From: Leucoraja erinacea
Taxonomy: Eukaryota
DNA: 64,000 nt
Direction: 5' to 3'
Assembly: GCF_028641065.1 (NCBI RefSeq)
Contig: NC_073415.1
Coordinates: forward strand, 3,906,001-3,970,000
Shown: positions 1,368 through 63,092 of the stretch, piece by piece
Layout: each line of letters begins with the position of its first letter
Numbering within the stretch: position 1 is the stretch's first letter
Program-made: the position numbers and the translations under genes
The notes under the pieces: generated by a model
Seen by the model: only the letters and a program-made list of their open reading frames with translations
The model's database searches: none
What the model was told of the DNA's origin: nothing

Positions 1368-2134
1368 AGAGGCCATTCGGCCCTTCGCGAGGAATTGTGT
1401 CGCCGGCCGACGTAGCTTGTCGCAGCGACGTCGACTAGGTCGAAGCTTGTCGTAGACATCGTCGTGGGGGGGGGGTCCAGATTTCTCACTCTCATCTCTC
1501 ACCCAATGTTGGTAGCCCCGGGTAAGATACCAAATGGCGATGGGTGAACAGTTGAAGGAACTGGTTCCCATTAATGCTCATCGGTTTATTTATTTGTGTT
1601 GAGCATTCAATACAGATAAAGACAAACTCGTAAACTGGGTGGTGAGTTAGTAAATCACATATCCAGTATTGTGTCGCAAGGATTTAATCTCTCTAGCCTC
1701 GATCATTATCATAGCTGGCTATCATTCTTCTGCTCTGGATGGTAGCTGGTTTTATTTTTCCAGTCAATTTATCCACACATTAAATATTAAGGCCACGATC
1801 GCCAGGGTTCAGTGAGGAATGAATACTGGAGACCTTGAAAAAAGCACAAATTGTGAGGAAATATGGTAGAAATAAAAGCATCAGATTTCTTAAGGACGTT
1901 TCACTTGTTGCATTCTGCCCTTACTCTTCCCTCTATATATCATTCCCCATGTGAAGGGACTGACAGGTTTCCTTGCCCCGTCGTTTTGATATTTTGTTTG
2001 AATTGTCTAGGAAAGATTTGTGGAGATACCTCTTGTGTGAGTCATTTAAAAAAAAACATGCTTTCAACCAGAGTGGGAATTTCCTCAGTGAAAAAATGGA
2101 ATGGACTTCAGAATGGAACTATGAAGTTATGAAA

Positions 2135-2304
2135 GACAGACATGAAATGCTGGAGTAATTCATTGGGACCCTTCTCAATAAGGCTCTCGACCCAAAGCAT
2201 CACTCATTCCTTTTCTCCAGAGATGCTGCCTGACCCACTGAGTTACTCCAGCATTTTGTGGCTATATTTGGTGTAAACCAGCATCTGCAGTTCCTTCCGA
2301 TACA
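2135..2304 (+). mobile_element. Penelope-derived fold-back insertion (family A)
   Basis: Inverted ctggagtaa.../...ttactccag arms; 14-bp TSD atgaagttatgaaa at 2121-2134 and 2305-2318. Confidence 0.75.
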
Positions 2305-2349
2305 ATGAAGTTATGAAACCTGAAATCAGTGGGTGTCTAGCTGGATTTT

Positions 2350-2680
2350 GGAAAATAGGTGCAGGAGGAGGCCATTCGGCCCTTCGAGCCAGCACCGCCA
2401 TTCATTGTGATCATGGCTGATCGTCCCCTATCAATAACCCGCGCCTGCCTTCTCCCCATATCCCTTGACTTCACTAGCCCCTAGAGCTCTATCTAACTCT
2501 CTTAAATCTATCCAGTGACTTGGCCACCACTGCCCTCTGTGGCAGGGAATTCCATAAATTCACAACTCTCTGGGAGAAAACTTTTTTTCTCACCTCAATC
2601 TTAAATGACCTCCCCATTATTCTAAGACTGTGGCCCCTGGTTCTGGACCCGCCCAACGTTGGGAAAATATTTCCTGCTTA
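2350..2680 (-). mobile_element. CR1-clade LINE 3' fragment
   Basis: Reverse complement of the CR1 ORF2 end and 3' UTR (gaagggccgaatggcctcctcctgcacctatt). Confidence 0.8.
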
Positions 2681-3010
2681 TAATGGGAGGAGCGTTGATT
2701 TTTCCAGATGCATGAGTTTCTTATATTGTTTTTTGCCCTTTCAGTGACAGAAAAAAACATTAACTAATCCGCTGTACTATCAAGCCACACGTGAATATTA
2801 TTACATGTAACTGTGGTTGGTACAAGCTAATTTCTACTTAAAGGAAATAACATTATCTTAACTAAAAATAATTTATCCAAAATCTGAAACTGATTTATCG
2901 GTCTTTATGAATCACACTTAATGAACCATATTGTTGTTTAACTGCAGACATTCCTCCTGAAGTCATGCAACAGCTGGATGAATTGTAATTCATACTCTGT
3001 ACCTTTGTAG

Positions 3011-3193
3011 CCTAGCCGGCAGTACTCAACATTGTCAGCTGAATCCAGTCGCATCCTTCTCATCTGTTTCCTCTGGGTCTTGAAGAATGCAGACGAGGAG
3101 ATCCTGCAGAAGTGGTTCACAGATCTCTCAGTGTTCCAACTAAACCGCCTGCTCGATCTATTGTACCTCTGCATATCCTGCTTTGAATACAAG
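3011..3193 (+). CDS. DOCK6: DOCK6 coding exon ([14 protein letters not shown]...CFEYK)
   Basis: tttgtag acceptor, gtaaat donor; 183 nt, phase 0-0; strong DOCK6/7 similarity. Confidence 0.95.
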
Positions 3194-4642: not shown

Positions 4643-4934
4643 GTAAGCACGATCTTTGAATTCTCTCCAGTAAATATGCCCATCCAACATTTATCTTTTA
4701 ATCCAAACCACGTAGACAGAAGTGCAAGATCCTAAGCCTGGTTCCCGCAAACCACTGTGTCACCCTGCACCTTGTTCAAGTTGTTTTTACTATGCACGAA
4801 GCTGAACTGTGAGTGTTTTCGTTTAATGTCTACACTCTTCCAGTTCCAGAGAAGGTCACCGTGTGGACAGCCAGCATCCTGAGCAGTTTTTCACACTGCA
4901 ATGATGCTATCTCGAGTCTCTAGCGGAGATCATA

Positions 4935-5410
4935 CGGTCACAAGTGATAGGAATAGAATCAGGCCATTTGGCCCATCAAGTCTACTCCACCATTCAATCA
5001 TGGCTGATCTATCTCTCCCTCCCAACTCCATACTCCTGCCTTCTCCCCATAACCTCTGACACTTGTAATAATCAAGAATCTATCTCTGCCTTAAAAAATA
5101 TCCACTCACTTAGCCTCCACAGCCTTCTGTAGCAAAGAATTCCACTGATTCACCACCCTCTGACTAAAGAAATTTCTCCTCATCTCCTTCCTAAAAGAGC
5201 GTCCTTTAATTCAGAGGCTATGACCTCTCATGCAAGACTCTCCCACTAGTGTAAACATCCTCTCCACATCCACTCTATCCAAGCCTTTTACTATTCTGTA
5301 TGTTTTCCCCCTCATTCTTCTAAACACCAGCGAGTACAGGCCCAGGGCAGACAAACGCTCATTATAAGTTAACCTACTCATTCCTGGGATCATTCTTGTA
5401 AACCTCCTCC
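4935..5410 (-). mobile_element. CR1 LINE 3' fragment (older subfamily)
   Basis: ORF 5211-5393 IPGMSRLTYNERLSALGLYSL... Confidence 0.8.
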
Positions 5411-6948: not shown

Positions 6949-7368
6949 GTACGTAGCGAGGCTCACGTTTGGTTAACTTTATGTACAACTGCTTTAACAT
7001 TAAATTGGACGAACAACACCTCATATTTCACTTGGACAGTTTTCAACCCAGCGGTATGATTTCTCTATATTTTAAGTAACTCCTGGCTTTCCTCTCTATC
7101 CCCCTCCGCCACCCCAGTTGTCCAACTAGTTGTACTGTTCCTATCCTTGTATTCCCTTGTTATCACATCTTCCCCAGCCAACAATGGGCCATTGTGGGCT
7201 TCAACCTTCCTTGGTCGTCTGTTGCCGGCCCTGCTATATTCCGGCCTTTTCTACCTCCACCTCCTCCCTCCTCAGAATTTATTATGTAAATTCTGTATTA
7301 TGGCTTATAATCCTAAACTGTTAACTTATTTGTTTAAAACAATTTACTCTTTTTTGAAGAGTAAACAA

Positions 7369-7658
7369 GGCGACAGATAGCACAGGAAGGCGACAGATAG
7401 CACAATGGGCTAAGAGTTCAGCTGGCGACCGGAAGGTAGCCGGTTCAAATCCCGCTTGGAGTGCATACTGTCGTTGTGTCCTTGGGCAAGACACTTCACC
7501 CACCTTTGCCTGTAATGGAATGTAATTACGGCGGCAGGCGCGGGCACACTGCGACGCCCTGTGTCTCCCTTTCAAGGGAGATGCTAAAAATGCATTTCGT
7601 TGTCTCTGTACTGTACACTGACAATGACAATAAATTGAATCATTTCATTTTTTTCATT
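7369..7658 (+). mobile_element. tRNA-derived CORE-like SINE with Rex1/L2-type tail
   Basis: B-box-like ggttcaaatcc, CORE-like gtgtccttgggcaagacacttcacccac, tail aatgacaataaa plus (catt)n. Confidence 0.6.
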
Positions 7659-7727
7659 AAATAAGTAAGATATTTTCACTGATAGCTGCGGAAATTCATT
7701 CCTATTCCGGCATTAAAGCACTGTGTT

Positions 7728-7980
7728 AGAAACATAGAAATTAGGTGCAGAAGTAGGCCATTCGGCCCTTCGAGCCTGCACCGCCATTCAATATGATCAC
7801 GGCTGATCATCCAACTCAGTATCCCGTACCTGCCTTCTCTCCATACCCCCTGATCCCCTTAGCCACAAGGGCCACATCTAACTCCCTCTTAAATATAGCC
7901 AATGAACTGGCCTCAACTACCCTCTGTGGCAGAGAGTTCCATAGATTCACCACTCTCTGTGTGAAAAATGTTCTTCTCGA
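7728..7980 (-). mobile_element. Young CR1 LINE 3' end
   Basis: Reverse complement of ...GIRGYGEKAGTGY* and the (ttctatgt)n tail. Confidence 0.88.
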
Positions 7981-8099
7981 AACGTGTTGTTGCATTAGGT
8001 TAGAAGGTTTTAGCTATATGGAGAGTCGAGCGCCGAAACTTCTCTCCATAGATGCTGCCTCATCCGCTGAGTTTCTCCAGCATTTTGTGTTTACCTTAA

Positions 8100-8424
8100 A
8101 GCCCTGTCCCACGATACGAGTTCATTCCAAGAGCTTTCCCGAGTTTGCCCCGATTCAATCTCGGAGATTTACGGTAATGGCCACTCGTCGGTACTCGGGG
8201 CTCTCGTGGACATTTTTCAACGTTGAAAAATCTTCACGAGTCTTCCCGTGCTTACCTGCCGTTAGCGAGTCTTCCCGAGCACCTGCCGTTAGCGGTACGA
8301 GCCGCTAACAGACGTCCCCGAGCTCCAACGGGTAAGTGCGTTCATTCTCCGTGCTTACCACAAATTTGATTTTTTTTAAACTCGGGAGAGCTCCTGGAAT
8401 GAACTCGTACCGTGGGACAGGGCT
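8100..8424. mobile_element. PIF/Harbinger-like MITE
   Basis: Long TIRs agccctgtcccacgatacgagttcattcca / tggaatgaactcgtaccgtgggacagggct. Confidence 0.75.
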
Positions 8425-8588
8425 ATTAGAAAGAGATTTGTTTAAGCTGGCATCATGTTTGGCATGGACATTGTATGTCAAAGGGCCTCTGTTATATTGT
8501 TCTATGTTCTAAGTCAGTACTGTGTCAGAAAATGGTGAGGTGATCCCTAATCTGCTGTTTGATTTGTCTTTTGAATGCCTTTGCACAG

Positions 8589-8741
8589 TTTCCCGAAATG
8601 CTGTTTGAGGAGGACACTGAGCTCTGTGCTGACCTGTGTTTGCGGCTACTTCGACACTGCAGTAGCTGTGTGGGCACCATCCGGTCTCATGCCAGCGCTT
8701 CCCTCTACCTCCTGATGAGGCAGAACTTTGAGATTGGCAAT
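8589..8741 (+). CDS. DOCK6: DOCK6 coding exon ([21 protein letters not shown]...EIGN)
   Basis: gcacag / gtaagt; 153 nt; EEDTELC is DOCK6-type. Confidence 0.96.
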
Positions 8742-9454
8742 GTAAGTACATCAATTCCTTTTGGTGTTGAATAAGGGAAGGCAGCAACTCGTTATAATCC
8801 AAAAGTGATCCAAATAAATCACAATCACAATAATACTTTATTAGCCAAGTATGTTTTGCAACGTACGAGGAATTTCATTTGCCAAGTCAGTCGTACAATA
8901 AAAAGCAACAGAACACACAAAACACATTTTAACATAAACATCCACCACAGTGACTCCTCCACTTTCCTCACTGTGATGGAAGGCGAAAAGAAGTTCAATC
9001 TCTTCCCTTTGCTCTCCCGCGGTCGGGGGCCTCGAGCCCTCCGTTGACGGGACGATCTTGACCCCCCGTAGCCGGCAGTGTTAATATGTTGTATGTTAAA
9101 CCATTAATATGTGATACTGAAAGCACATTGTCTACATTTAAAATGACATGCACACCCCTAGAAATAGCACCATTAGCAAGGAGAAATACAATTTTTACAT
9201 ACATGGTGTCGAGATCCCTCAAAGTCTTCCATTTGTCAATTAAACCCCACTCACTCTTCTGAATGAATTGCCTTTTTAACATTTTCTCTTGAGGCAACCC
9301 ACCCATTCCAGATATAAGTCTAGCTAACAATTGCTGAATTGCTGACAACATATTAACATCCTTCCTCAAATAAAGAGACCACTCCCATGCACAGTAATAC
9401 AAATGTGATCCCACCCAAGCTGTATAGAACTGAAGCATAACCTCCGTACTTCTA

Positions 9455-9805
9455 TGTGTGGGAAAGAACTGCAGATGCTGGTTTAAATCGAAGGGTAGAC
9501 ACAAAATGCTGGAGTAACTCAGCGGGACAGGCAGCATCTCTGGAGAGAAGGATTGGGTGAAGGTTCGGGTCGAGACCCTTCTACATTTCTTGCCTATACA
9601 TTTGCAAAGACATTTGCCCATCTAAACATGTTTTAAAGACCACTCTCCTATCTGCCTCCACCACCCAGTGCATTCCAGGCACCAACCACTCTCTGTGTAA
9701 AAATACTCCAGGCTGAGGAAGGGTCTCGACCCAAAACGTCACCCATTCCTTCTCGCCAGAGATGCTGCTTGTCCCGCTGAGTTACTCCAGCTTTTTGTGT
9801 CTACC
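9455..9805. mobile_element. Two opposite-facing family A Penelope-derived copies
   Basis: Left copy 9455-9583 and right copy 9711-9805 (ctgaggaagggtctcgacccaaaacgtc). Confidence 0.65.
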
Positions 9806-10731
9806 TCCCTACTCCTATAAATACAATTCCCTGGTCATTTTAGACTCTCACACTTTTAGAGATACAGCGTGGAAACAGGCACTCCAGTCCACCGAGACCA
9901 TGCCGACCAGCGATCACCGCATGAATATATTTAATAATCTGTCCCAATCTATTGATCTGTCACTCGTTTTGTGAGATTGGTTGATTTCAATGATGCTCAA
10001 GACACATTTGCCTGCACTCCATTGTAAGCAGAAGAGCTTGAATGTGTGTGTCCATAACCTTACACATTTTATAACTAAAGTTGCGTGATTGGAGTTCTGA
10101 AGAAAGGTTATCGACCTGAAACATTAATTCAGTTTCTCTCACCACAGATGCTGCCTTATCTGAAAACTATTTTCTGCTTTTATATCAGATTTCTAATGTG
10201 TAGATATTTTTTGCTTTTCAACGCAAATTATTTTTGGATAGTTGGGTAGGAGCCAAGCCCCGACATGTCCTTTATCCAACCTTGTCCCCCTTGTGTCATG
10301 TGGCCATCAGCAGAAATTGAGTAGGTGATCCGAAGGTGCAATGTATTTTAAAAACATGTTTTTTCTGATCCCTGGTAAATTTATGAACTTATCTGGACTC
10401 GTTAAACAAATTAATCCATTACTTTGAGTCAGGAGGAAGTTCGAGTGTGAACCTGTAGTCCCATTAGTCTGTAGAGGACCCAGTGATATCTTAGAGTTAG
10501 CTCAGCTCACCGGTCACCTCGCTGTCTCCACTGATGATTCATCACTGCCCTGTTTTGTCATACAGAGGCTGCCGATGAGGTCTTAAGCAATATTTATTCT
10601 ACAGCAGAGACCATTGTTCTGGTAAGAGCAGAAAAATATCGGCCAAATTGTAGCGCTAATAGAAGAAACTAACCCGATCATCCACTCGTACGTGCACCCA
10701 CTGTAGCATAATACTGGGAGTTTGCCTCTAA

Positions 10732-13345: not shown

Positions 13346-13423
13346 ATAAAGTCATAAGGAATAGGGGTAGAATTAGGCCATTTAGCCCATCAAGTCTACT
13401 CCGCCATTCAATCATGGCTGATC

Positions 13424-13632
13424 AAAATTGCTGGAGAAACTCAGCGGGTGCAGCAGCATCTATGGAGCGAAGGAAATGGGTAACGTTTCGGGCTGAAACC
13501 CTTTGTCTGAAGAAGGGTTTCGGCCCGAAACGTTGCCATTTCCTTCGCTCCATAAATGCTGCTGCACCCGCTGTGTTTCTCCAGCACTTTTGTCTACCTT
13601 CGATTTTCCAGCATCTGCTGTTCCTTCTTAAA
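13424..13632 (+). mobile_element. Penelope-derived fold-back insertion (family B) with hammerhead-like core
   Basis: Inverted arms; ctgaagaagggtttcggcccgaaacgtt at 13507-13534; 15-bp TSD caatcatg(g/a)ctgatc inside a CR1 tail. Confidence 0.8.
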
Positions 13633-14737
13633 CAATCATGACTGATCTATCTCTCCCTCCACACCGTATTATCCTTCCTTCTCCCCATAACCATAGTCAT
13701 GCAGCACGGAAACAAGTCCGACATCTCAACTCGTTCCTGCCAACCGACAAACCCCTTCTAATGTGGTCCTATTTACTCATGTTTGGTCCTGCAAAGAGAT
13801 TTAGAGGGAGACGCACATAACTGCAGATGCTGAAAGCTTGAGTAAAAAAACACACTGCTGGAGGATCTCTGCAATGGGGGAAAAAACAGACAATGTTCTG
13901 GAGTCATAGAGTCATACAGAGTGGAAACAGGCTCTTCAGCCCAACTTGCCCATGCCAACTAACATGTCCCATCTACACTACTCCTACCTGCGTTTGGCCC
14001 ATGTCCCTCTAAACCTGTTCGATCCATGCACCTGCCTAAATGTTTCTTAAATAGTACCTGCTTTAGATGAATAATGTTTAGGAGAACTGCATGATCTGAC
14101 AAAGTGTTGTTAATTTGAAATACAGTTCTGGTGCCTGCTTTAATCTTCTTTCAACCAGCTGAGAATCTCTGATCTTAAGAGGTTTGCCTGTAATATTGTC
14201 AGTAAAAGGTGCTGTTGCCATCACTGAGGCTTTTTGATGATAGAATCTGATCTGCCCACACAGCTGATGAATATCTGGTAAAAATGTGAACTTTTGGGAG
14301 GCGGTGGTTAATATAGCACGAACAATGAACAGCTTTCAGTTCGATAACACTTTCAATATCCCCAGTATTTCACAGGTCAACAGCAAAGGAGAACAAAAAG
14401 CTGCAGTTGCTGGAAGTCTAAACTAAAAATAGAAAATGCTATTAACACGCAGCAGATCAAGCAGCATCTGTAGAAAAGTGAAACAATAAATCTAATGTTT
14501 CAGAACTTTGTCAGAATTGAGGAAGGTTTTGAACTTGAAAGGCCCCTCCTAAATGTCCAAGGAAAGAGATGTACAAAAACAGAGGACTTTAGCGCTTGGC
14601 ATCTGAGAATATCATCAGTATTGAAATGATTAATTTCAGCAATGCTCAACATTCTCAGGCTGAAGGAGTTTATAGAGAAAGAAAACAGAAACCACAGAGG
14701 AATTTGGAAGCTGGATTAAGGATTGTCAGTTCCATGC

Positions 14738-16526: not shown

Positions 16527-17438
16527 AATGGTTGTAAAATGAATGAATGGGCAAAATGGGGGGGTAAAGAGGTCTAGCTTTAGATGGGGGATCTTGGTTG
16601 GCATGGATGAGTTGGGCAGAAAGGCCTGTGTTCTTGCTGTATGTTTGAAGTGACTCTATGACACTACCTAGGTACAAGTGACTATAAAGTACCATTGCAC
16701 CATTAAAAGAGGTAATTGGTTCAGGAGTCTGATAGCAGTGGGGAAGAAGATGCTCTTAAGTCTGTACATCGGGGCTTTTAAACCCGTATCTTCTCCCAGA
16801 AGGTGGAAGAGAGAAAACAGAATAGCCAGTCGGAGGCATCTTTGGTGATCAGCCTTCCTGATTCATCGCTTCCTCCTGTTCTTCTGCCCAATCTGATTGT
16901 TCCGTTGTAGGAAAATCTTACATGCTTTTGTTTGATGCGGCTACCTATTGACATCGTTACTTCTGAACCTACAAGCCCTCTGCCCAGAGAGTACTTTCTA
17001 AACTACCAGCCGAGATTTTCAAGATATATAAACATCCTTCATGTATAAACATGTGAAGGAAGTACTCCTTGTAACACTAATCTCTTCAGGAAGAATGTCA
17101 TTTTCTAAAACCATGGAGTAGATATGTAGTACAGGCACTAATCGCTGGAGTAACACAGCGGGTCAGGCAGCATCTCTGGAGAAAAGGAAAAGGTGATATC
17201 TCGGGTTGAGACCCTTCTTCAGACTCCATCAGGTAGATACATAATGGTGATCTACCTTGGCAGACTGTCTCCAGCACAAATTTTAGCCTGTCCTGGTTTT
17301 CTGCAGTTTTTAAGGATGAAAAAAACATTTGCTCTAATACTCCCAAATGAATTCACTGTTGGAAAAAAAAATCAGCAACCCCTATCCCAATGCGCAGTCC
17401 CAAGACTGAACGGCTGATCTTTCTTTTATCCCCGCCAG

Positions 17439-17570: not shown

Positions 17571-18513
17571 GTATTGGACGTGCACACAGTAGCTGCCTTT
17601 TTAGGAAATGGAGTGTGTGTGTGTGTGTGTGTGAAACATGTTTGTCAAATGTGCTGAATATTTTTAACGGTAAGGGCTGGGCTGGAAAATTAAGTTCATA
17701 AGACATAGGAGTAGAAGTAGGCTATTCGGCACATTGAGCCTTCAATCTATTTTTTCCCTCAATCCCATTCTCCTGCCTTCTCCCCATAACCCCTGACGCC
17801 AATCAAATTCCAATTAATTATGTGCCAATTTCCGCCTTAAAAGGACCCATTGACTTGGCCTCCTCTGCCGTCTGTGGCAATGAATTCCACAGATTGACCA
17901 CCCTGCGACGAAAGATATTCTCAACCAATCTACTTTACTCCACTTTCATTGCCCTTCCCAAAGTTCACATCAAAATAAGATGGGAGAGAATGTGCCTTTA
18001 GTGTTGGTTAATGCTTCCTGTGAGTTGGTTGCTGTGCTTTGCAAGTGGAGCTTCCCTCCTTACTTTCTCACGCAATTGTGGAAAGAGCCTCACCCATGCC
18101 TTTGCCTCTTCCCCAAATCACTCTCCCTAAATCACGCAATATTAGATCAGCACTAGCCTGTGCATTAGAGAGTCAAATTAGCACAGTTTCTTGAGCACCT
18201 AACAATTTTTAAACATGGGGATTTTAACCTGAACAGCAATTTTAAACTGGTGTGAACTCAAGCTGTTTTGGAGAAGTGACACTAAACAAAGGTGTATACC
18301 AAACCATGTTAGGAGATATTATGTAAGTTTTAAGAAACATTTCAGGTAAAGAGGGAAGTGGAGAGATTGGGGAGAACATGCCAGTTGCAAGCATTACCAG
18401 CAAAGCCACCAAAAGCAGATACACAAGGTTAGAAAGTAAACCATCCAGGGATTTGGAGGAAAACCACAGGAGAGAGAGCAAGGAGATTGTTTTTACTCAA
18501 ACCTTGAGTAAAT

Positions 18514-18665
18514 AGGATAGACACAAGAAGCTGGAGTATCTCTGGGGCGAAGGAGTGGGTGACGATTCAGGTCGAGATCCTTTTTCAGAGATGCTCCCTG
18601 TCCCGCTGAGTAACTCTTTTTGAGTCTCTCTTTGGTTGAAACCAGCATCTGCAGTTCCTTCCTAC
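18514..18665 (+). mobile_element. Penelope-derived fold-back insertion (family A)
   Basis: 13-bp TSD acctt(g/a)agtaaat at 18501-18513 and 18666-18678. Confidence 0.72.
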
Positions 18666-19689
18666 ACCTTAAGTAAATGACCCCCGTGTGTTAATAAAAC
18701 ACAGACGCCCAGTGTAAACGGCAACACCTCACAAATACCTGCCCACCTGTCTTGCACTTCCTACCTCATCTGTGGGGAAATCACCATGAGTCCACTAAAC
18801 CCAGCGGGGAGGAAGTCTTCTCGATGCCCAGGAATTGCCTCGGGAGAAGGATGGGCAGATAGACGTGCTACAGATTTTGATAGGCAAATGAATGAAGTTG
18901 ACTGCACACACTTTTGACAAAGCCAGCAACCAGAGATACGGAAACTTGCTGCAGCATTCTGATCCTTCACTGGCACTAGTGCAGTGCAACACAAAGAAAA
19001 TACAGTGGACAGATTTAAAAAGCCGCACCTCTGGTCTTGTCGATCCCAAGCCCTGCCACAAGGTGGTGCACACGCACTTTCTTCCTTGTGTTAAATGAGC
19101 TGCTGCATGAGTCGGGCTCACAGTCAGCTTCCCAAGCCTCAGTAAGAGGATCTGTCAAAGCAACAATGGAAGTTAGAGCTCCATTTAAAATTCTTTTGAG
19201 TCAACTCCAGGAACCCCACGTTTAAGTCCTGGCTGATGTTAATTGGCTCTTCCTGTGGAGTTGTTGAAGGATTCAAGTACAGCTCAGCTGAGTGACGAGG
19301 TGGAGATGGGTGCAACTTTGGAATATTGCTTTTAAAATGTTCTGCTCCATTGTTTTGCAATCAAACATAGTATAACCCATTCAGACATGAAGCACTCTGG
19401 CAAAATTAACCCAACTCGATGGGGTTGCTATCCATTGTACATCAGGGTGAATGGGGGAGATGGAAGGTTATGTTGGGTTAACTTGGTCATGTAGGTATTG
19501 GTCTCGGATAGGGCTCTCTCATCATCTGTTGATGAAGGGAAAAATGCTAAATGCACAGAGAATCAAAAAGAACGTACAGTGCCCCCTTGCTGTGGTGTGT
19601 GTGGCATATAAACATTGTGCAACTTGCACTAATGCTTTTCCTGTACCAGACATATTGATCAGATCCCTTCACAGGGATTAACATGTCCT

Positions 19690-44171: not shown

Positions 44172-44604
44172 CTGGATAGTCTCGGCTTGTACTCGCTAGA
44201 ATTTAGAAGATTGAGGGGGGGTCTTATAGAAACTTACAAAATTCTTAAGGGGTTGGACAGGCGAGATGCAGGAAGATTGTTCCCGATGTTGGGGAAGTCC
44301 AGAACAAGGGGTCACAGTTTAAGGATAAGGGGGATATCTTTTAGGACCGAGATGAGGAAAACATTTTTCACTCAGAGAGTGGTGAATCTGTGGAATTCTC
44401 TGCCACAGAAGGTAGTTGAGGTCAGTTCATTGGCTATATTTAAGAGGGAGTTGGATGTGGCCCTTGTAGCTAAAGGGATCAGGGGGTATGGAGAGAAGGC
44501 AGGTACAGGATACTGAGTTGGATGATCAGCCATAATCGTATTGAATGGCGGTGCAGGCTCGAAGGGCCGAATGGCCTACTCCTGCACCTATATTCTTTGT
44601 TTCT
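44172..44604 (+). mobile_element. Young CR1 3' fragment
   Basis: ORF 44187-44516. Confidence 0.88.
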
Positions 44605-45245
44605 AAAGTTTTCAAAATCTAACAAACCTTTTAATTATTTTGTATTTTATGAACATTAACTTGATTTAGAAAATTAAATTTCTTAGTTAATACTTAACCT
44701 GGGTACCACATGGTGGACAATGCTTCATCTTCCAAACCTGGAAATCTGTGAAACAAGGCTGCCTGCATTCAATTTGCAGCCTCTGCATAAAGTTGTTTCT
44801 TTATTGATCTCTTCAATGCAAGCAGCAAATTCCTGTTTCAGTAAAATTGGCAAAGTGAGGCTCGGGGCTTTGATCTTTTAAAAATGTTGCCTCCTTAAAT
44901 GCGTTTCTGTTTCAGTTTATTTTTTGAAGGTTCCTGCTGTGTATTGTTCCAGGTTGAGCATTTACAAAACGGGGTAAAATGCCCCCCTCCAGTTCTGTTG
45001 CAATTGATTTTCCAACTATTCCCTGGTTATTGGTCAAATCATTACATATGACCTGTAAACACTGCAGTTCTTTAATAAACAAAATCAAGTTGAATTGCTA
45101 GTAGCGGGCATCCTTTTGTAGATTTTAGCTTGTTCATGCAACATTGATGGTGGTGGTGCAAGAATATATACCATCAGGTCTCGCAAGCCTTTCTCACCAT
45201 CCAGTATCATCAACTCCTCTGTAGCAGATCTCTCATAGATTCCCT

Positions 45246-45473
45246 CATAGAAACATAGAAATTAGGTGCAGGAGTAGGCCATTCGGCCCTTCGAGCCTGC
45301 ACCGCCATTCAATATGATCATGGCTGATCATCCAACTCAGTATCCCGTACCTGCCTTCTCTCCATACCCCCTGATCCCCTTAGCCACAAGGGCCAGATCT
45401 AACTCCCTCTTAAATATAGCCAATGAACTGGCCTCGACTACCCTCTGTGGCAGAGAGTTCCAGAGATTCACCA
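45246..45473 (-). mobile_element. Young CR1 3' end
   Basis: Same tail as 7728 and 26769. Confidence 0.88.
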
Positions 45474-45908
45474 TCTTTCAAAAAGGGTATTTCCTCCACT
45501 TTTAAGCATTTATATTGATCTAGCCTCCACACCTGGGATAGAGAATTCCAGAGATTTGCTACGTTCTGTGAGAAGAAATGTCCACATACCTTGGTTTCAA
45601 ATGAATGACCCTTTCTTGAAACTGCAGCTTCATTTGAAACTCACCACGAGGACATAACAAAGCGTTTTGTCCCATCCATGTAGAGCAAGTGGCTTCTCAC
45701 TAAGCATCGGCCATTATGTTTTGATCAGATCAGATGGATTAACTTGTCATATACAGCAGGTGCAACGTTATTCTTAGTTGCATGATGTTCATGCATAACC
45801 AATAAAGATAGGCACACTAGTGCAACACCAAATGCTAGAGCAGCAAAATTGAGTCAAGATTGGAGTCGCAGCTGAATTAGTACAAAGAAAGAAGTATAAT
45901 ATTCGAAT

Positions 45909-46096
45909 GTACACAAAAATGCTGGAGAAACTCAGCGGGTGCAGCAGCATCTATGGAGCGAAGGAAATAGGCAACGTTTCGGCCCGAAACGTTGCCTATT
46001 CCCTTCGCTCCATAGATGCTGCTGCACCCGCTGAGTTTCTCCACCATTTTTGTGTACCTTCGATTTTCCAGCATCTGCAGTTCCTTCTTAAACACA
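45909..46096 (+). mobile_element. Family B fold-back element, near-perfect 149-bp palindrome plus 3' extension
   Basis: Arms 45909-45982 and 45984-46057, with two mismatches. Confidence 0.85.
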
Positions 46097-46480: not shown

Positions 46481-46616
46481 TCTTAAGGGTTTGGACAAGC
46501 TAGATGCAGGAACAATGTTCTTAAGGGATTGGACAAGCTAGATGCAGGAACAATGTTCTTAAGGGATTGGACAAGCTAGATGCAGGAACAATGTTCTTAA
46601 GGGATTGGACAGGCTA
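46481..46616 (+). repeat. 38-bp tandem repeat (about 3.6 copies) of CR1 ORF2 sequence
   Basis: tcttaagggattggacaagctagatgcaggaacaatgt repeated. Confidence 0.9.
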
Positions 46617-47030
46617 CCCCCGCTCAGTCCGCAATAACCTACCTGAACTCCCGGTGGCTCAGCACTTCAACTCCCCCTCCCATTCCCAATCCGACCACTC
46701 TGTCCTGGTTCTCCTCCATTGCCAGAGTGAGCAACACCGGAAATTGGAGGAACAGCACCTCATATTCCGCCTGGGTTGCTTGCGTCCGGTTGGCATGAAC
46801 ATTGAATTATCCCAATTTTGCAAGCCCTTGCTGTCTCCTCCCCTTCCTTAACCCTCGAGATGTCTCCTCCAATCGCCCCTCCCTTGGGCTCCTCCTCCTC
46901 CTCCCTTTTTCCTTCCTTCTCCCACCCCCCATCAGTCTGAAGAAGGGTTTCGGCCCGAAACGTCGCCTATTTCCTTCGCACCATAGATGCTGCTGCACCC
47001 GCTGAGTTTCTCCAGCATTTTTGTGTACCA
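46617..47030 (+). mobile_element. Penelope-like element 3' end (GIY-YIG C-terminus plus pLTR with hammerhead-like motif)
   Basis: RSVRNNLPELPVAQHFNSPSH...RKLEEQHLIFRLG...GMN; ctgaagaagggtttcggcccgaaacgtc at 46937-46964. Confidence 0.85.
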
Positions 47031-48984: not shown

Positions 48985-50120
48985 CAGTGGTGCAGCGGTG
49001 GAGACCCGGGTTCGATCCTGACAACGAGTGCTGTCTGTGCGGAGTTTGCACGTTCTCCCCGTGACCGCGTGGGTTTTGTCCGGGTGCTCCGGTTTCCTCC
49101 CACACTCCAAAGATGAGCAGGTTTGTAGGTTATTCGTTTTCGGTAAAAATTGTAAATTGTCTCTAGTATGTAGGATGGTGCTAGTGCACGGGGTGACCGC
49201 TGGTCAGCATGGACTCGGTGGGCCGAAGGGCCTGTTTCTGCGCTGTATCTTTAAACTAAAATCTAAACTAAACTAAACACCATGTTCCCGATGTTGAGGG
49301 AGTCCAGAACCAGGGGCCACACTGTTTAAAAATAAGGAGTAAGCCATTTAGAACGGAGACAAGGAAACACTTTTTCTCACAGAGAGTGGTGACTGTGTGG
49401 AATTCTCTGCCTCAGAGGACGGTGGAGGCAGGTTTTCAGGATGCTTTCAAGAGAGTTAGATAGGGCTCTTAAGGATAGCGGAGTCAGGGGATATGGGGAG
49501 AAGGCAGGAATGGGATACTGAGTTGGATGATCAGCCATGATCACATTGAATGGCGGTGCTGGCTCGAAGGGCCGAATGGCCTACTCCTGCACCTATTGTC
49601 TAGTCTATTGTCGAAACCTCAACGGTGGAACAGGTGGAGGATGGAGGCTGGATAGAGTGTGGAACACCACAGCAGCTGAGAAGATTGAACAAGGTTGCAG
49701 CAAGGAGAGGTGGTGGAGTCCATGCTGTTGGAGCTGAGTCTGCCTCTGCCAAGGACCGTGTGGTGGCTGTCCATGCACCAGTGGCCCCACGGTAAAATAT
49801 GTCACGCACAGGCGTCCACCTGGAGGAACTTCGAAACATAGAAAATAGGTGCAGGATGAGGCCATTCAGCCCTTCGAGCCAGCACTGCCATTCATTGTGA
49901 TCATGGCTGCTCGTTCCCTATCAATAGCCCGTGCCTGCCTTCTCCCCATATCTCTTGACTCCACTAGCCCCTAGAGCTCCACCCACATCTCTCTTACATC
50001 CATCCAGTGACTTGGCCTCCACTGTGGCCGGGAATTCCATCAATTCAAAACTCTCTGGGTGAAAAAGTTTTTCCTCACCTCAGTCTTAAATGACCTCCCC
50101 ATTATTCTAAGTCTGTGGCT
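48985..50120. mobile_element. Cluster: HE1 SINE (48985-49277 plus), CR1 (49279-49600 plus), CR1 (49835-50120 minus)
   Basis: Diagnostic heads and tails as in the other copies. Confidence 0.8.
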
Positions 50121-50916
50121 CCAGGATCAGCCATCTGAAGACCCACAGAAAGGACCTACGAGGAGGACAATCACACTTAGACTTCGAGTGATCGCAGATG
50201 ATGGTTCGGCATGAGATTTGTAAAACATTTGGAACGGATGGGAAGGAGTAGGATGTTGGGCATTGTAACAGCAGTGGAAAGTTGAAGTCAATGCCGAGAA
50301 GTCATGCGTTGCCCAAGCAGGATATTGATAGAAAGAGCAGATAGAAAGCCAAGTGGTTTGGCTGCTGTCCCAGAAAGTAACCAGAGAGAAATGGGTCTGA
50401 ACGAGAGAGCCCGGACTGCACTGATATTACATACAGGGTTGTGTCGAAACAGAAACAAAAAAGAATAATGAGATGAATGAGGATGGCCAGCTTTTAATAC
50501 AGAGAATGTCAGGGGGTCCTGACAGTGCTGACTATGCAAGGAAGGAACGCCACTGATTAGTTGGAGTGTGTTGAAAGGGAAGGCTGTCGGGATACGTAAC
50601 CATATGGTTCTAAACCAAAACCAGTTTTACAGGGTGGGAACGCAATAAAAGTAGCCAAAGGAACAAATGTAGCATCGCACAGTGGCGAGGTAAAGATTTA
50701 TAACAGCTGCACACATGCGGTACAACTGTAAAGAAATGTGAATGTGATTAATGAAGATGTGACTTCACACTTCTGTCTGAAGGAGGGTCTCGGCCCGAAA
50801 CGTTGCCTATTTCCTTCGCTCCATAGATGCTGCCTCACCCGCTGAGTTTCTCCAGCACTTCTGAGGTTCCCTTTATACTAATTCATCAATAATGCAAATG
50901 CAATATTAGAGAGGAG

Positions 50917-51680: not shown

Positions 51681-51979
51681 CCGTTTTGTATGATAGTCAA
51701 TGGTACCAGGCACAGCTTTAAGGTAAGAAGGACAAATTGTGCGGGACATGTCTTTTACACAGTGGATGGTGGGTGCCTGGAACGCACTGTGATGGAGGCA
51801 ACTGTACAATAATGGCATTGAAGAGGCTTTTAGGAAGCAGGGAATGGATGTATATGGATCACATCAGGCAGAGGAGATTAGTTTAACATGGAATTATGTT
51901 CATCACAGACTAGAGTCCTAGCCTACTCAACCTCTCCCCATAGCTCCCCACACTTCCTGTGCCGTTCTATGTTCTATAA

Positions 51980-52300: not shown

Positions 52301-53062
52301 AAATGGTGGCCGATTGGGAAAGGGGGAGATGCAGGGAGACCTGGGTGTCATGGTACACCAGTCATTGAAGGTAGGCATGCAGGTGCAGCAGGCAGTAAAG
52401 AAAGCGAATGGTATGTTAGCTTTCATTGCAAAAGGATTTGAGTATAGGAGCAGAGACTTCTACTGCAGTTGTACAGGGTCTTGGTGAGACCACACCTGGA
52501 GTATTGCGTACAGTTTTGGGTCTCCAAATCTGAGGAAGGACATTTTTGCCATAGAGGGAATGCAGAGAAGGTTCACCAGACTGATTACTGGGATGTCAGG
52601 ACTGTCTTATAAAGAAAGACTGGATAGACTTGGTTTATACTCTCTAGAATTTAGAAGATTGAGAGGGGATCTTATAGAAGCTTACAAAATTCTTAAGGGG
52701 TTGGACAGGCTAGATGCAGGAAGATTGTTCCCGATGTTAGGGAAGTCCAGGACAAGGGGTCACAGCTTAAGGATAAAGGGGAAATCCTTTAAAACCGAGA
52801 TGAGAAGAACTTTTTTCACGCAGAGAGTGGTGAATCTCTGGAACTCTCTGCCACAGAGGGTAGTTGAGGCCAATTCATTGGCTATATTTAAGAGGGAGTT
52901 AGATGTGGCCCTTGTGGCTAAGGGGATCAGGGGGTATGGAGAGAAGGCAGGTACGGGATACTGAGTTGGATGATCAGCCATGATCATATTGAATGGCGGT
53001 GCAGGCTCGAAGGGCCGAATGGCCTACTCCTGCACCTAATTTCTATGTTTCTATGTTTCTAT
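52301..53062 (+). mobile_element. Young CR1 3' fragment inserted in a family A fold-back element
   Basis: Host halves 52255-52300 and 53063-53200. Confidence 0.9.
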
Positions 53063-53659
53063 CTCTAGAGAAAAGGAATTGGTGACATTTCGGGTCTTCA
53101 GACTGTCCTTCTCTCCAGCGATGCTGCCTGTCCCGCTGAGTTACGCCGGCTTTTTGTGTCTATCTTCAGTTTAAACCAGCATCTACAGTTCCTTCCTACA
53201 CACACAGTATGAGGAGTTTAGTGATCTCTGCCTGGTTCTGCCTTTGGAAAGCCAGTCAAGTCTCCTAGAGTTTTTCTGCAGTCCATTGCAACATGTCTGA
53301 ATTCTGGAGTTTAGTTTTATGGCCAGTTATTCATTGAGTGGGACATCTGCGTAGATCCAAGATTTAACGGACTTCTTCATAATGGATTTCCACCCTAGCA
53401 GACTGACCTACCGACGTTGCCCGCCCATATGCTCTAATTTTGGCCACTAATCTCCGGCGTGGAACTGTGCGATGAATGGAGAAACCTTTGGGCTGGAGAG
53501 CTGAGTCTGGGGAGTAGGTGGGTGAGCCAATTCGCTGTGAACTAAAGCACACAACATCCCCTCACACCCCTTTGGTGAAAAACTCTTGCTCTTTAGTCCT
53601 CAATCTTATTCTCTAGGGTCTTAATTAAGAGGATGTTGAGTATTGTGTTCAGTTTAGAG

Positions 53660-55238
53660 TATTCTGTTCATTTCTGGGCACCACGTTAAAGGAAAGATGT
53701 TGTCAACTGAGAGGATTTACAAGGATGTTGCCAGGGCTAGAGGGTCTGAGCTATGGGGAGAGGTTGAGTAGGCTAGGACTCTAGTCATTGGAGGGAAGGA
53801 AGATGATGGGTGCCCTTATATAGGTGTATAAAATCATGAGAGGAATAGATTGGGTAGATGCACAGAGTCTCTTGCCCAGTGCAGGTGAATCGAGAACCAG
53901 AGGACATAGGTTTAAGGTGAAGGGGAAAAGATTTAATAGGAATCTGAGGGGTAGATTTTTCACACTATGGGTGGTGGGTGTATGGAACAAGCTGCCAGAG
54001 GGGGTAGTTGAGGCAGGGACTATTGCAACGTTTAAGAATCTGTTAGACAGGTACATGGATAGGACAGGTTTGGAGGGATGTGGACCAAACGCGGGCAGGT
54101 GGGACTAGTGTAGCTGGGACATGTTGGGCAAGTTGGGCCGAAGTTCCCCGATTCCACACTGTATCACTCTATGACTATTTGACTCAAATGTTAGGATGGG
54201 GAGGGGAGGGGGGGGGGGGGGTAGTCTCTGATCCTTTGCCCTCGCAGGCTGCAATGTGGTCAACATTTCTGGGTGCAATGGGAACCTCCCTAGTGTTTCC
54301 AGGTACTGTCCTTACTGTGTCTGCATGCCACACGCTCCACATGGGCTGTCTATGTTAAAAGCATTATTGGGGTAAGAAAGAAATCTAATCTTTCACATCT
54401 GGGCGAGTAAACAATTTAACACTTCCCACTCTCTGGTTACGGGGTAATGTCAAATTAGAATCTAAAAACAAGCTGTACATAGTAAGAATGAAACCAAAAA
54501 ATTGGTATATGTGGAGCCAGTAGCATATAGTAGATGATGAGAATGTAGCGGTTTGTATCATGGACATCGAAACTGCTCTCACTTTATAGTGTTATTTACT
54601 CTTACACTGCCTATATAACAAGAGGAATCGAATATAGGGGCAAAGAGGTCCTTCTGCAGTTGTACAGAGCCCTAGTGAAACCACACCTGGAGTATTGTGT
54701 GCAGTTTTGGTCCCCTAATTTGAGGAAGGACATTCTTGCTATTGAGGGAGTGCAGCGTAGGTTTACAAGGTTAATTCCCGGGATGGCTGGACTGTCACAT
54801 GCTGAGAGAATGGAGTGGCTGGGCTTGTACACTCTGGAGTTTAGAAGGATGAGAGGGTATCTCAATGAAACATATAAGATTGTTAAGGGCTTGGACACAC
54901 TAGAGGCAGGAAATATGTTCCAGATGTTGGGGGAGTCCAGAACCAGGGGCCACAGTTTAAGAATAAGGAGTAAGCCATTTAGAACGGAGATGAGGAAACA
55001 CTTTTTCTCACAGAGAGTTGTGAGTCTGTGGAATTCTCTGCCTGGTGGAGGCAGGTTCTCTGGATGCTTTCAAGAGAGAGCTAGATAGGGCTTTTAAAAA
55101 TAGCGGAGTCGGGGGATATGGGGAGAAGGCAGGAACGGGGTACTGAATGGGGATGATCAGCCATGATCACATTGAATGGCGGTGCTGGCTCGATGGCCAA
55201 ATGGCCTACTCCTGCACCTGTTGCCTATTATCTATTGA
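53660..55238 (+). mobile_element. Two CR1 3' fragments (53660-54176 older; 54610-55238)
   Basis: ORFs 53824-54108 and 54660-55088. Confidence 0.85.
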
Positions 55239-58273: not shown

Positions 58274-58274
<1 letters not shown>

Positions 58275-58689: not shown

Positions 58690-60040
58690 CATAGATTCAC
58701 AGAGCGTTGCATCATATAAACAGGTCATTCGGCCCACCTTGTTCATGCCGACCAAATTGAATGTTTGCCTTTTGCATTTCATGTTGGCCCCTAGCCCTCT
58801 AAACCCTTCGTATCCATGAGTAGGAAGGAACTGCAGATGCTGGTTTAAACCGAAGATGCTGGAGTAACTCAGCTGGACAGGCAGCATCTCTGGAGGGAAG
58901 GAAGGGGTGAGTCTGGGGAAACGTCACCCATTCCTTCTCTCTAGAGATGCTGCCTGTCCCGCTGAATTACGCCAGCATTTTGTGCTTTCCTATCCATGTA
59001 CTTGTTCGAATGTCTTTTAAAAGTCACAATTGTATCTAATGTTATAGCTTCCTCTGGCAGCTGATTCCAGATACGGATTACCCTCTGGTTGAACAAGCTG
59101 CCCCTGAGGTCTCTCTTCAGTCTCTCTCCTCTCGCCTTAAGCCTGTGTCCTCTAGTTGTAGAACTCTCTACTCCGGGGGGGAAAGACTGTGAGCGTTCAC
59201 TTTATCCATGCCCATTATAATCGTGTACACCTCAATAAGGTCACACCTCCGCCTCCTACACTACAAAGAAAAAAGCCCCAGCCTATCCAACTTCCCCCTT
59301 CAACTCAAGCCCACAAACCCTGGTAACATCCAGGTGAATCTTTTCTGCATCCTTTCCAAATACTTCACCAGGTTAATTCCCGGGATGGCATGGCTGACAT
59401 ATGATGGAAGAATGGATCAACTGTGCTTAATATTCACTGGAATTTAGAAGGATGAGTGGGAATCTCATAGAAACATATGAAAGAGTTGTGAATCTGGGGA
59501 ATTCTCAGCCACCGAAGGCAGTGGAGGCCAATTCACTGGATGTTTTCAAAAGAGAATTAGATATAGCTCTCAGAGCTAATGGAATCGAGGAATATGGGGA
59601 GAAAGCAGGACCGGGATACAGATTTAGGATCATATTGAAAGGCGAATATTGAATAATGAAACCCCTTACAAAATTCTTAAGGAGTTGGACAGGCTAGATG
59701 CAGGAAGATTGTTCCTGATGTTGGGGAAGTCCAGAACAAGGGGTCACAGTTTAAGGATAAGGGGGAAGTCTTTTAGGACCGAGATGAGAAAAACATTTTT
59801 TACACAGAGAGTAGTGAATCTGTGGAATTCTCTGCCACAGAAGGTAGTTGAGGCCACAGTTCATTGGCTATATTTAAGAGGGAGTTAGATGTGGCCCTTG
59901 TGGCTAAAGGGATCAGGGGGTATGGAGAGAAGGCAGGTACAGGATACTGAGTTGGATGATCAGCCATGATCATATTGAATGGCGGTGCAGGCTCGAAGGG
60001 CTGAATGGCCTACTCCTGTGCACATTTTCTATGTTTCTAT
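58690..60040. mobile_element. CR1 cluster (minus 58690-59360 with a nested fold-back at 58820-58985; plus 59363-60040)
   Basis: CR1 ORF2 peptides and tails. Confidence 0.78.
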
Positions 60041-61296
60041 GGCATTGCTGGCTCGAAGGGCCGAATGGCCTCCTCCTGCAATTACCTTCTATGTTTGGTA
60101 TCATATTTTCAGCTGAGAGTTCCTCTTCCATGTTCTCAAGAGAACGAGGTTTTGCTCCTCAAATTCTCCTCACAGCTCGTTCAACATGCCACAAGTGTCG
60201 AGTCGGTACATTTGTGGTGGGATGAATGTTAACCAGAGGGCGAGGAACTCCCTTTGTATCTTCAGGCTGTTTTGGACTGAACAACTATTGGCACACTGTG
60301 GCCGTGACTGTTTACTGAAGTCTTCTCATAACATCTGACTCCCCTCGCTCTGACACAATGATAGGAACGACACAAAACTGCCGAGCCATCACATTTCCAA
60401 TGTCTTATCTCGTTTAATACTGGAGCCCACTGAAAGCACAGAAGAAGGCCATGATACCCACCAGGCACAAAGTTCTGCATAGAGTTATGGAGTTAAACAC
60501 CGTGGAAACAGCCCAATTTGCCCACACTGCCCAACATGTCCCAGCTACACTAGCCCCACCTGCCTGCATATCCCTCCAAACCTGTCCTATCCATGTCCCT
60601 TGCAGAGACAAGGACTTAAGACTTTTGGCTTCCATCACAGTGAGTGGGCCTGGTGGGCTCACTGTAGTGGATGTTAAATATGTGTTTATTGTGTGATTTG
60701 TTATTTTTATTCTATGTCACGACTGCAAGGCATGAAATTTCGTTCAGACTGAAAAGTCTGAATGACAATAAGGGATACTTGACTTGACTTGACTTGACTT
60801 GACTTGACTTGAGATGCTAGTTCAGTCGGAACAAGATTCTCGTCCCGAAAAATCACCTATTCCTTTTCTCCAGAGACGTTATCTGACCTGCAGAGTTACT
60901 CCTCCAGTTTGCATCTATCTTAGGCACAAAGCCCTTCTTTTCACTGCTTCCAATGCATGAATAAATTCTCGGTGATCAGATCTGGGTACAGAGAGCAAGT
61001 TATAATTTGACCACAGTAAGGTTTAGGCAGGGATTTCCCAACCTTGTGCTCCAGTGAATGAACTGTGTAGTTTCGTGTCCAATTTGTGATGTTGAACGAC
61101 TGGTTTAATTACGTTTAACACAGATGCAGCTGTAACACTACAATCGGAAAAGAAAGACACAAAAAGCTGGAGTAACTCAGCGGGCCAGGTGATGTTGCAT
61201 ATGCTGGGAATAAATTCCTGATCTTCCAATCTACCTCATTACGAACCTCGTACTTTTTTACCTGCAATTTCTCTGCATTTGTAATACTACAATCAG

Positions 61297-61478
61297 GAAA
61301 GATAGACACAAAAAGCTGGAGTAACTCAGCAGGACAGGTGATGTTTTAGGTCGAGACCCTTCTTCATACAACGATCACCCATTCCTTCTCTCTAGAGATG
61401 CTGCCTGTCCCGCTGAGTTACTTCAGCTTTTTGTGTCTATCTTTGGTTTAAACCAGCATCTGCAGTTCCTTCTTACAC
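61297..61478 (+). mobile_element. Family A fold-back insertion
   Basis: 11-bp TSD actacaatcag at 61286 and 61479. Confidence 0.75.
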
Positions 61479-62561
61479 ACTACAATCAGCAATTTGTTTG
61501 TTTCCTCTTTGGCACTTCCTGAGGCACTCAAATATATTAGGAATTGAACTTTAGTACATGCAGCGATAATAAACCGATAGCAACACTATAACTGAATGTA
61601 AAGATAGCCATGCACTGCTTTTGATTTTAGTTTGTTTAAGAAATACCAGCGTGGAAATAGGCCTGTCGACCCAACGAGTCCGCACCAACCTACAATACCT
61701 GCGCACAAACACTCTCCTACACACTACAGACAATTTACAATTTTGCAAAGTCAATTAACCTACAAACCTGCACGTCTTTGGAGTGTGGGAGGAAACTGGA
61801 GAAAACCCATACAGGACAATAGACAATAGGTGCAGGAGTAGGCCATTCGGCCCTTCAAGCAAGCACTGCCATTCACTGTAATCATGGCTGATCATCCAAA
61901 ATCAGTACCCCTCCCCATATCCCTTGGCTCCACCATCACCATGAGAACGTGCAAACTCCTTACAGACAGTAACTCCGCCACTGTGCCGCAATATTTCTTA
62001 CATTTTTTATGAATAAAATTTATTATTGATATTAAATAATCCATTCCCATTGAATATTCCCAGAGATTTTTTATTTCCCTGAATTTATTTTCATTTCTGA
62101 CCTTGCATTTCTTCCCTCTTCCCATTTTGGAATTATGTGCAGAATTTGAGAGAAGGGAGTCCTTTTGAAAAGTAGAGCTCATTAAAATCCATTTTCCTCT
62201 TCAGAGCCTATTTACTCAATTGCATAGATCAATATCTCGTGATTATCTGACTAATGAGACAGGGTTTCTTTGATCAGCGATGCTGAAACCAGCTTCAGTA
62301 GCTGCTGTGTTGTTGCTATTCTCTCCCTGCCTGCATTGTCACTGCATTGGCTGTCCGTTCTTCCACTGAATCGAACTACCAAATCAGTGAACTCTCTTTT
62401 GGAGGAGTTTGAGGAAGCTACTGTAATTATAGAGTGGTTGAGCTGTACAGCAACAAAACAGTCCCTTCAGCCCACCTTGTCCATGCTGGCATATTGCTGG
62501 CTAAAGATAGACACAAAATGCTGGAGTAACTCAGCGGGACAGGCAGCATCTCTAGAATGAA

Positions 62562-62930
62562 GTGTTCAAGAAGGAACTGTAGATGCTGGAAGATCGAAGG
62601 TACACAAAGTTGCTGGAGAAGCTCAGCGGGAGCAGCAGCATCTATGGAGCGAAGAAAATAGGCGACGTTTCGGGCCAAAACCTTTCTTCAGACTGATTGG
62701 GGGTGGGAGGGGAGAAGGAAGGAAAAAGGGGAGGAGGAGGAGCCCGAGTGCGGGGGGGTGGGAGGAGACAGCTCGAGGGTTAAGGAAGGGGAGGAGACAG
62801 CAAGGGCTAGCAAAATTGGGAGAATTCAACATTCATACCATCAGGATGCAAGCTGCCCAGGCGGAATATGAGGTGCTGTTCCTCCAATTTCCGGTGTTGC
62901 TCACTCTGGCAATGGAGGAGACCCAGGACA
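62562..62930 (-). mobile_element. Penelope-like element 3' end nested in a family A fold-back
   Basis: Reverse complement of the 46617-47030 element; host halves about 62503-62556 and 62931-63058. Confidence 0.82.
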
Positions 62931-63092
62931 TTTCGGGTGAAGACCCTTCTTCAGACTGCCCGACCTGAAACGTCACCCATTCCTTCTCTCCAGAGATGCT
63001 GCCTGTCCTGCTGAGTTACTCCAGCATTTTGTGTCTATATTTGGTGAAGCCAGCATCTGGCATATTAAGTTATTTGTATTTGTGGCCCTAGG

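Follow-up and report, generated by a model that had tools for sequence, protein, structure and literature searches.

Short non-coding sequences, some of them joined head to head, are scattered through a 64,000-nucleotide (nt) stretch of the Leucoraja erinacea genome (contig NC_073415.1, positions 3,906,001 to 3,970,000; termed the window herein), which raises the question of where they come from and how the inverted pairs arise. Each unit, called an arm here, consists of a minimal hammerhead motif, a body of ∼65 nt, and an optional tail of ∼33 nt, giving 100 to 130 nt overall (positions within the arm are counted with the C of the hammerhead CUGA as +1). The arm is the terminal repeat (the end of the pseudo-long terminal repeat [pLTR]) of a Penelope-like element (PLE) with a GIY-YIG endonuclease (EN). 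We consider it likely that the head-to-head pairs, or fold-backs, are short insertion products of two coding PLEs, A and B, each made afresh via two cDNAs.

A reading of the window from its letters alone (the sequence-only reading) had estimated about 25 to 30 copies in two subfamilies. This estimate holds: a motif search gave 27 A and B sites at ≤10 mismatches, and an nhmmer profile search identified 41 arms in 47 segments at 28 loci. The search was extended to a sample of the 2.19-Gb genome made up of the window and 139 further stretches of 10 kb each, placed at round coordinates (1.454 Mb in all, with small chromosomes over-represented). The sample contained 858 arms (697 A and 161 B; 5.9 per 10 kb), and A and B profile matches covered ∼8% of its bases, while the reversed 1.45-Mb sample gave no nhmmer arm match. 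By rough extrapolation from the sample, there would be about a million arms genome-wide.

Coding parents and the hammerhead motif

Subfamily B had been read as the 3′ end of GIY-YIG-coding fragments, which was confirmed at positions 46616 and 62563. Parents were sought by walking upstream from the window's B fragment, and a full-length B element of 3.8 kb was found at locus L164 (2803 to 6581). It comprises, in order, a 5′ pLTR starting at −1, a tail, the likely start of the open reading frame (ORF) ∼35 nt past that tail, a reverse transcriptase (RT) region, a CX4CxxC linker, the GIY-YIG domain, the 3′ untranslated region (UTR), and a tailed 3′ pLTR. In this structure, the arm occurs twice, closing the element at its 3′ end and making up the initial ∼130 nt of its unit. 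A arms are joined to EN/RT sequence at many loci (L034 to L047 and L170), with coding sequence 77 to 78% identical to that of B. For the window itself, the sequence-only reading had reported no coding parent of A; an A-type fragment is present at 7002 to 7239 (plus strand; E value, 8.7e-31), with the end of the EN coding sequence and 3′ UTR and without an arm.

The translations of L164 and of a second locus, L006, show N-terminal RT and thumb motifs (by eye) followed by LIYCIRCSRC..IYIGET..H..H, in ORFs that are broken. The Pfam GIY-YIG model matched the parent translations with an E value of 0.003 and 18.3 bits, under the cut-off of 22.6, and Pfam did not recognize the window's 80-amino-acid EN fragment or the N-terminal RT pieces. 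With RT and GIY-YIG sequence, a tail, variable target site duplications (TSDs), and characteristic pLTR arrangements (5′ and 3′ pLTRs at L164, partial tandems in 16/30, and inverted arms), the A and B parents are EN+ PLEs. The B linker, CNRKKCNTC, fits the CX2-5CxxC motif upstream of GIY-YIG that marks Neptune and Nematis (PMC8557442). It would place B with these groups, the name Neptune being given tentatively on the linker.

Eight matches to the hammerhead descriptor were found in the window at ≤3 mismatches, against 0.00 expected; they include the core boxes and stem II, whose pairing holds in both A (U-A) and B (U-G). The sequence-only reading had overlooked this motif. In one example (13505 to 13534, plus strand), the minimal type I motif reads CUGAAGA, stem II GGGU-UUCG-GCCC, and GAAACGUU, the descriptor features being those of PMC4209133. 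The predicted motif shares with the metazoan PLE hammerheads of that paper the CUGANGA core, an extra base, a short stem II, GAAAC-GUH, the palindromic 15.2-16.2 positions, and a helix I of 2 bp; such minimal hammerheads occur in thousands of dispersed copies in vertebrates. An Rfam search matched no hammerhead family and returned only sub-threshold microRNA matches for the hairpins, and minimum free energy folding of the arms was no better than that of shuffled sequences (z, −0.7 to +0.7).

The predicted cleavage site (+28) was considered as the 5′ boundary of the copies and rejected, because the ends do not mark it. After score filters (and with locus L112 excluded from A), the end statistics cover 464 of the 697 A arms and 119 of the 161 B arms, and ends at +27 to +29 were seen in 7 and 1 of these, respectively. 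This is in line with uncleaved RNA as the template of an anole PLE in vitro (PMC11167929). Copies here differ from those described in PMC4209133 in ending at the 5′ edge of the motif and not at the cut site.

Target site duplications and the pairing of arms

Close arm pairs (scores ≥25, gap ≤60, L112 excluded) were head to head in 124 cases and tail to tail in 10. With TSDs called at scores ≥9, a duplication was kept in 44 of the 122 testable head-to-head pairs (null, 2/600); its length was 9 to 17 bp, with 31 of the 44 at 12 to 15 bp. TSDs are 66% AT, without a strong target consensus. Every one of the 44 TSD-bounded fold-backs consisted of one tailed and one untailed arm, a pairing that the sequence-only reading had not noted. 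TSDs of 10 to 22 bp also bounded 41 of 266 solo arms (null, 0/400), which split 23:18 in tail status. The 3′ ends of the arms are bimodal, at approximately +95 to +100 and at +129/130, which matches a tail bounded by the two RT start sites of the anole PLE (PMC11167929). Concordance of paired arms as AA or BB is not taken to indicate a single RNA, since A and B differ in age.

All seven TSDs that had been listed from the sequence alone were recovered with the same coordinates, lengths, and mismatches. Five of them bound fold-backs as claimed, and two, 26172/26297 and 42396/42528, bound single arms. The description of many copies as fold-backs likewise holds in part, as sampled arms lie mostly outside close fold-backs (816 arms gave 124 head-to-head pairs).

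Short, palindromic, and abundant sequences can suggest a miniature inverted-repeat transposable element (MITE), that is, a DNA element with terminal inverted repeats, and a fixed-TSD MITE had been named as an outcome that would overturn the sequence-only reading. No such signature was seen: variable TSDs (9 to 17 bp) and ends unequal by ∼33 nt refute a MITE, which we regard as extremely improbable. In addition, fold-backs differ at their centres, TSDs bound solo arms too, and the arms are terminal sequence of an RT/GIY-YIG element.

We favor twin target-primed reverse transcription with two start sites, one per nick, and joining by microhomology, as a probable route to the fold-backs. An RT-EN protein (predicted to be a dimer for the anole element) would nick both strands 9 to 17 bp apart, and synthesis on sense RNA would begin at the distal (tail) start site for one nick and at the proximal site for the other. 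Both cDNAs would mostly end ∼100 or 130 nt on, and their 3′ ends would be joined by microhomology, often the palindrome, and then repaired; use of a single nick would give a solo arm with a TSD. For L1, Ostertag and Kazazian reportedly described in 2001 a twin priming in which two cDNAs from both target strands are joined by microhomology, leaving an inversion inside the TSD. The second primer there reportedly acts at random internal sites and the arms do not overlap, whereas here both starts are fixed ∼33 nt apart and the arms are near-duplicates.

The anole PLE, Poseidon_Ac, offers another likeness: in vitro, it cuts and extends both target strands, and RT starts at two adjacent internal sites bounding the tail, on an uncleaved hammerhead RNA (PMC11167929). 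The two differ in clade (a CX4CxxC linker here) and in the start of the ORF, which lies after the tail here and in stem II there; in the excerpts of that paper cited here, fold-backs or run-off stubs are not derived from its mechanism. RNA from beyond the tail, which the anole enzyme needs, is missing from the stubs, and these are therefore probably dead ends.

A different origin has been proposed for Penelope of Adineta (PMC3846280), in which one cDNA or antisense RNA folds at a palindrome and copies itself. Palindromes and microhomologies at many junctions would suit such self-priming, but a copy-back arm cannot be longer at its 5′ end and shorter at its 3′ end. Among the 44 TSD-bounded fold-backs, the arm reaching further 5′ was the untailed one in 19 and the tailed one in 11, and the two were level in 14, which disfavors self-copying of a single cDNA. 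The anole enzyme, moreover, primes on nicked DNA from sense RNA (PMC11167929), and we consider self-priming unlikely, though less firmly so in its antisense-RNA form.

The 5′ edge and the junctions

The 5′ ends of arms cluster at the 5′ edge of the hammerhead and at the stem II palindrome, at ∼15 to 25 times the rate elsewhere. For B, the stop rate was 3.8%/nt at −8 to +4, 2.5%/nt at +5 to +19, and 1.4%/nt at −20 to −9, compared with 0 to 0.26%/nt at +20 to +60 and 0.14 to 0.25%/nt upstream of −20; A had the same peak. A smooth distribution of truncation lengths, which had been named as an outcome contrary to the sequence-only reading, is thereby rejected, and the peak at −8 to +4 supports the first of its two alternatives, truncation at the 5′ end together with inversion at a fixed RNA feature. 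Beyond the edge, the upstream flanks are unique, and pyrimidine-rich ones are few (3/116 at ≥0.8); the edge is therefore not an alignment artifact. Starts at −10 to +4 were found in 26 of the 41 TSD-bounded solo arms, and starts at −11 to +3 in 7 of 30 copies carrying the 5′ region of the ORF. Exact genome counts for B were 18,893 copies from −1, 15,024 from −2, 11,354 from −4, and at least 2,342 from −9, the last being a lower bound that misses subfamily variants.

One inverted B copy (locus L166, 883 to 1894, minus strand) has its start past the tail, at least ∼1.5 kb into the ORF, and ends at −2, combining a nonstandard RT start with the standard 5′ edge.

In the twin-priming scheme, the stops would come from run-off, the start sites of the 5′ pLTR lying that close to the 5′ end of a transcript beginning at an initiator (Inr)-like TCAGT; in PLEs, the promoter lies within the pLTR (PMC2377424). 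We give run-off at the transcript 5′ end about an even chance of being the reason for the stop. Four raw-read RNA runs from related organisms were also searched (1 to 6% of each read; polyA, oligo-dT, and single-cell libraries). Arms were read on both strands, the depth over the 5′ part of the ORF was low, and the same edges appeared as loose ends at −1/−2, +92, and +129.

The arms may instead be twin primed on a longer RNA, with the 5′ edge set by RT stalling or drop-off, or by a processed splice acceptor, at the boundary of hammerhead and pyrimidine tract; we regard this as possible though rather unlikely. A Drosophila virilis intron ends at helix I (PMC4209133), which fits a splice site and speaks against run-off. 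The ends spread over ∼10 nt, 35 of the 69 B arms that reach +4 run past −8, and both parents carry a pyrimidine tract and CAG just upstream, all of which favors such a boundary. On the other side, the edge is common to A and B despite differing upstream tracts, a recurrent exon further upstream was not seen, and the TSD lies within ∼7 nt of the core for 16 of the 18 solo arms inspected. RT usually stalls ahead of an RNA structure rather than past it, which also counts against stalling here.

Several observations weigh against twin priming with run-off as we propose it. The 5′ edge is a zone of ∼10 nt and not one base, and 60% of exact B copies keep TCAGT to −4, above the prediction of a single start at A(−2). 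The cap-G signature outside fold-backs is weak (10/21), and the four RNA runs gave no sharp transcription start and no pile-up of molecule starts. Among the 30 copies with the 5′ region of the ORF, 16 reach at least 80 nt upstream of the hammerhead, indicating that longer templates are common, and transcription in D. virilis starts ∼120 nt upstream of the hammerhead (PMC2377424, PMC4209133). As for the pairing, the 122 pairs comprise 95 mixed, 17 short+short, and 10 long+long; none of these 27 like-length pairs has a TSD, and they may be neighbors or decayed copies. Identity is higher within pairs (0.89 versus 0.85 for A and 0.95 versus 0.92 for B), which is confounded by shared age. Finally, the in vitro data come from a Poseidon element of another clade.

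The 44 TSD-bounded fold-backs differ in their junctions from copy to copy, so that no short master family is needed. One junction recurs: a fold at the B stem II palindrome, which joins 7 of 20 B fold-backs and has 1,550 exact matches across the genome. In 4 of the 7, the base at its centre is that of the tailed arm, and in 3 that of the untailed arm, which points to repeated independent formation and not to one master. These results bear on the second alternative of the sequence-only reading, in which the copies are a non-autonomous RNA resembling a short interspersed element (SINE) or a retrozyme (a short or hairpin master, possibly circular), self-transcribed and mobilized in trans by PLE enzymes. 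The very high copy number, narrow size classes, hammerhead motif, and recurrent palindromic junction suit this idea, as does a junction of a third subfamily, C, found at 18,764 places. The A and B arms, however, are simply parent pLTR sequence, and their ends avoid the cleavage site; judged from the junctions, A and B do not look like copies of short master loci. With coding parents and varied junctions, this alternative is unsupported for A and B and in our view improbable.

Non-LTR retrozymes (bioRxiv 10.64898/2026.07.22.740005) are likewise non-coding, derived from PLE pLTRs, and equipped with a hammerhead. They form head-to-tail arrays with a complete hammerhead in each of two or more units, whereas A and B occur solo or head to head with variable junctions. 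The RNA libraries used cannot reveal small or circular RNA. At one locus (L174, 1465 to 1376), a few RNA reads (3 and 6) link the untailed end to +2, as a genomic tandem or a circle would.

Subfamily C lies outside the window (L112, G000:C40:4.00 Mb, at 1080 to 1425, 4807 to 5204, and 7516 to 8636; also G000:C2 at ∼24 to 26 Mb), and its junction was not found in the window. It consists of 66-nt head-to-tail arrays of pLTR +21 to +86, with units up to 97 to 98% alike and without a CUGANGA core. The 18,764 exact genome matches of its junction cluster strongly (4 of 140 sampled stretches). At one C locus, both arms of a fold-back are arrays, with 66-nt repeats of the tail region in addition. C does look like an amplified non-coding unit and is a candidate PLE-derived non-autonomous or satellite unit.

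The copies in their setting and their meaning for PLEs

Besides the copies already mentioned, A fold-backs of an untailed minus-strand and a tailed plus-strand arm are found at 2121 to 2318 (untailed arm decayed, tailed arm at 2173 to 2304; 14-bp TSD 2121/2305), 18501 to 18678 (13-bp TSD, 1 mismatch), and 61286 to 61489 (11-bp TSD). For the last, a stretch with its left flank, its TSD, and the beginning of its untailed arm is repeated ∼150 bp upstream (61121 to 61196 versus 61281 to 61345). The opposite order, tailed on the minus strand and untailed on the plus strand, is seen at 25932 to 26128 (untailed arm decayed; 10-bp TSD) and at 58808 to 58999 (12-bp TSD, 1 mismatch), a copy absent from the sequence-only list. 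The A fold-back at 30589 to 30787 is joined inside the hammerhead, with no TSD recovered, and an asymmetric A remnant lies at 53061 to 53203. In the A pair at 9442 to 9820, a tailed minus-strand arm and an untailed plus-strand arm flank a foreign spacer of 123 nt, with a possible 14-bp TSD (2 mismatches, by eye and unscored); part of the spacer (9586 to 9708) matches window repeats at 51753 to 51800 and 55003 to 55054 in reverse, possibly as a templated patch. Solo A arms are untailed at 17132 to 17225 (minus strand, starting at −2) and tailed at 42396 to 42538 (plus strand; 11-bp TSD).

B fold-backs occupy 13409 to 13647 (untailed minus, tailed plus; 15-bp TSD, 1 mismatch) and 45902 to 46094, the latter joined at the stem II palindrome GTTTCGG-C-CCGAAAC with an 8-bp flanking repeat under the TSD threshold. 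Solo untailed B arms lie at 26172 to 26308 (minus strand; small repeats at the 5′ junction, 12-bp TSD) and 50770 to 50865 (plus strand). The 5′-truncated B PLE at 46616 to 47030 (plus strand) has the C-terminal part of GIY-YIG, the 3′ UTR, a hammerhead (46935 to 46964), and an untailed arm; 38-bp tandem repeats of sequence that we take to be CR1-like abut its 5′ junction (46481 to 46616). At 62496 to 63059, the left arm of an A fold-back is split by a tailed 5′-truncated B copy with EN coding sequence (62563 to 62930, minus strand).

Head-to-head 3′ ends of presumably CR1-like long interspersed elements and other short inverted-repeat elements (44151 to 45473, 38515 to 39021, 49450 to 49992, 8095 to 8429, and 29489 to 30248) are unrelated to the PLE arms. 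The window lies within a DOCK6/7/8-like gene, with an exon at approximately 25774 to 25902 in the DHR-2 region (E value to DOCK7, 1.8e-20), and its repeats are probably intronic.

The copies do not represent a new kind of element: PLEs are already known to have inverted pLTRs, tails, and hammerheads, and the one-sided tail is known qualitatively (PMC3846280, PMC8557442). With the scheme for Adineta Pen2a and EN+ PLEs in these papers, the fold-backs share the head-to-head inverted pLTR with a tail on one end only, the optional tail of 30 to 40 bp, variable TSDs, junction palindromes, and an Inr-like motif in the pLTR. They differ from it in that an insertion usually consists of nothing but two pLTR stubs, in numbers that extrapolate to about a million arms, and that the one-tail rule is counted (44/44) and the 5′ edge fixed; TSDs are mostly 12 to 15 bp compared with 8 to 10 bp. 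In our literature search, the strict rule of one long and one short arm, the fixed 5′ edge, and the A/B family were not found described, an existing annotation being possible. The term strong-stop was absent from the PLE papers found, and the papers found for Penelope with twin priming were, by title or abstract, not about PLEs.

How the inverted and tandem ends of PLEs form is called unresolved in the cited parts of PMC8557442 and PMC11167929. The 44/44 pairing and the fixed 5′ edge favor sense-RNA twin priming over the self-priming of PMC3846280 and make sharp predictions for an existing in vitro system. More tentatively, and with somewhat less than an even chance, the stubs, about a million of them, might record the PLE insertion cycle: a dimer on one RNA would always use the tail site to prime one strand and a site ∼33 nt inside it to prime the second, and initiation in the 5′ pLTR would run off the capped mRNA end as a strong-stop cDNA. 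Short PLE palindromes are open to misannotation as MITEs, SINEs, or microRNA precursors. If the dimer scheme is true, it would account at once for the inversion of pLTRs, for a tail on one side only, and for the very large excess of non-coding copies.

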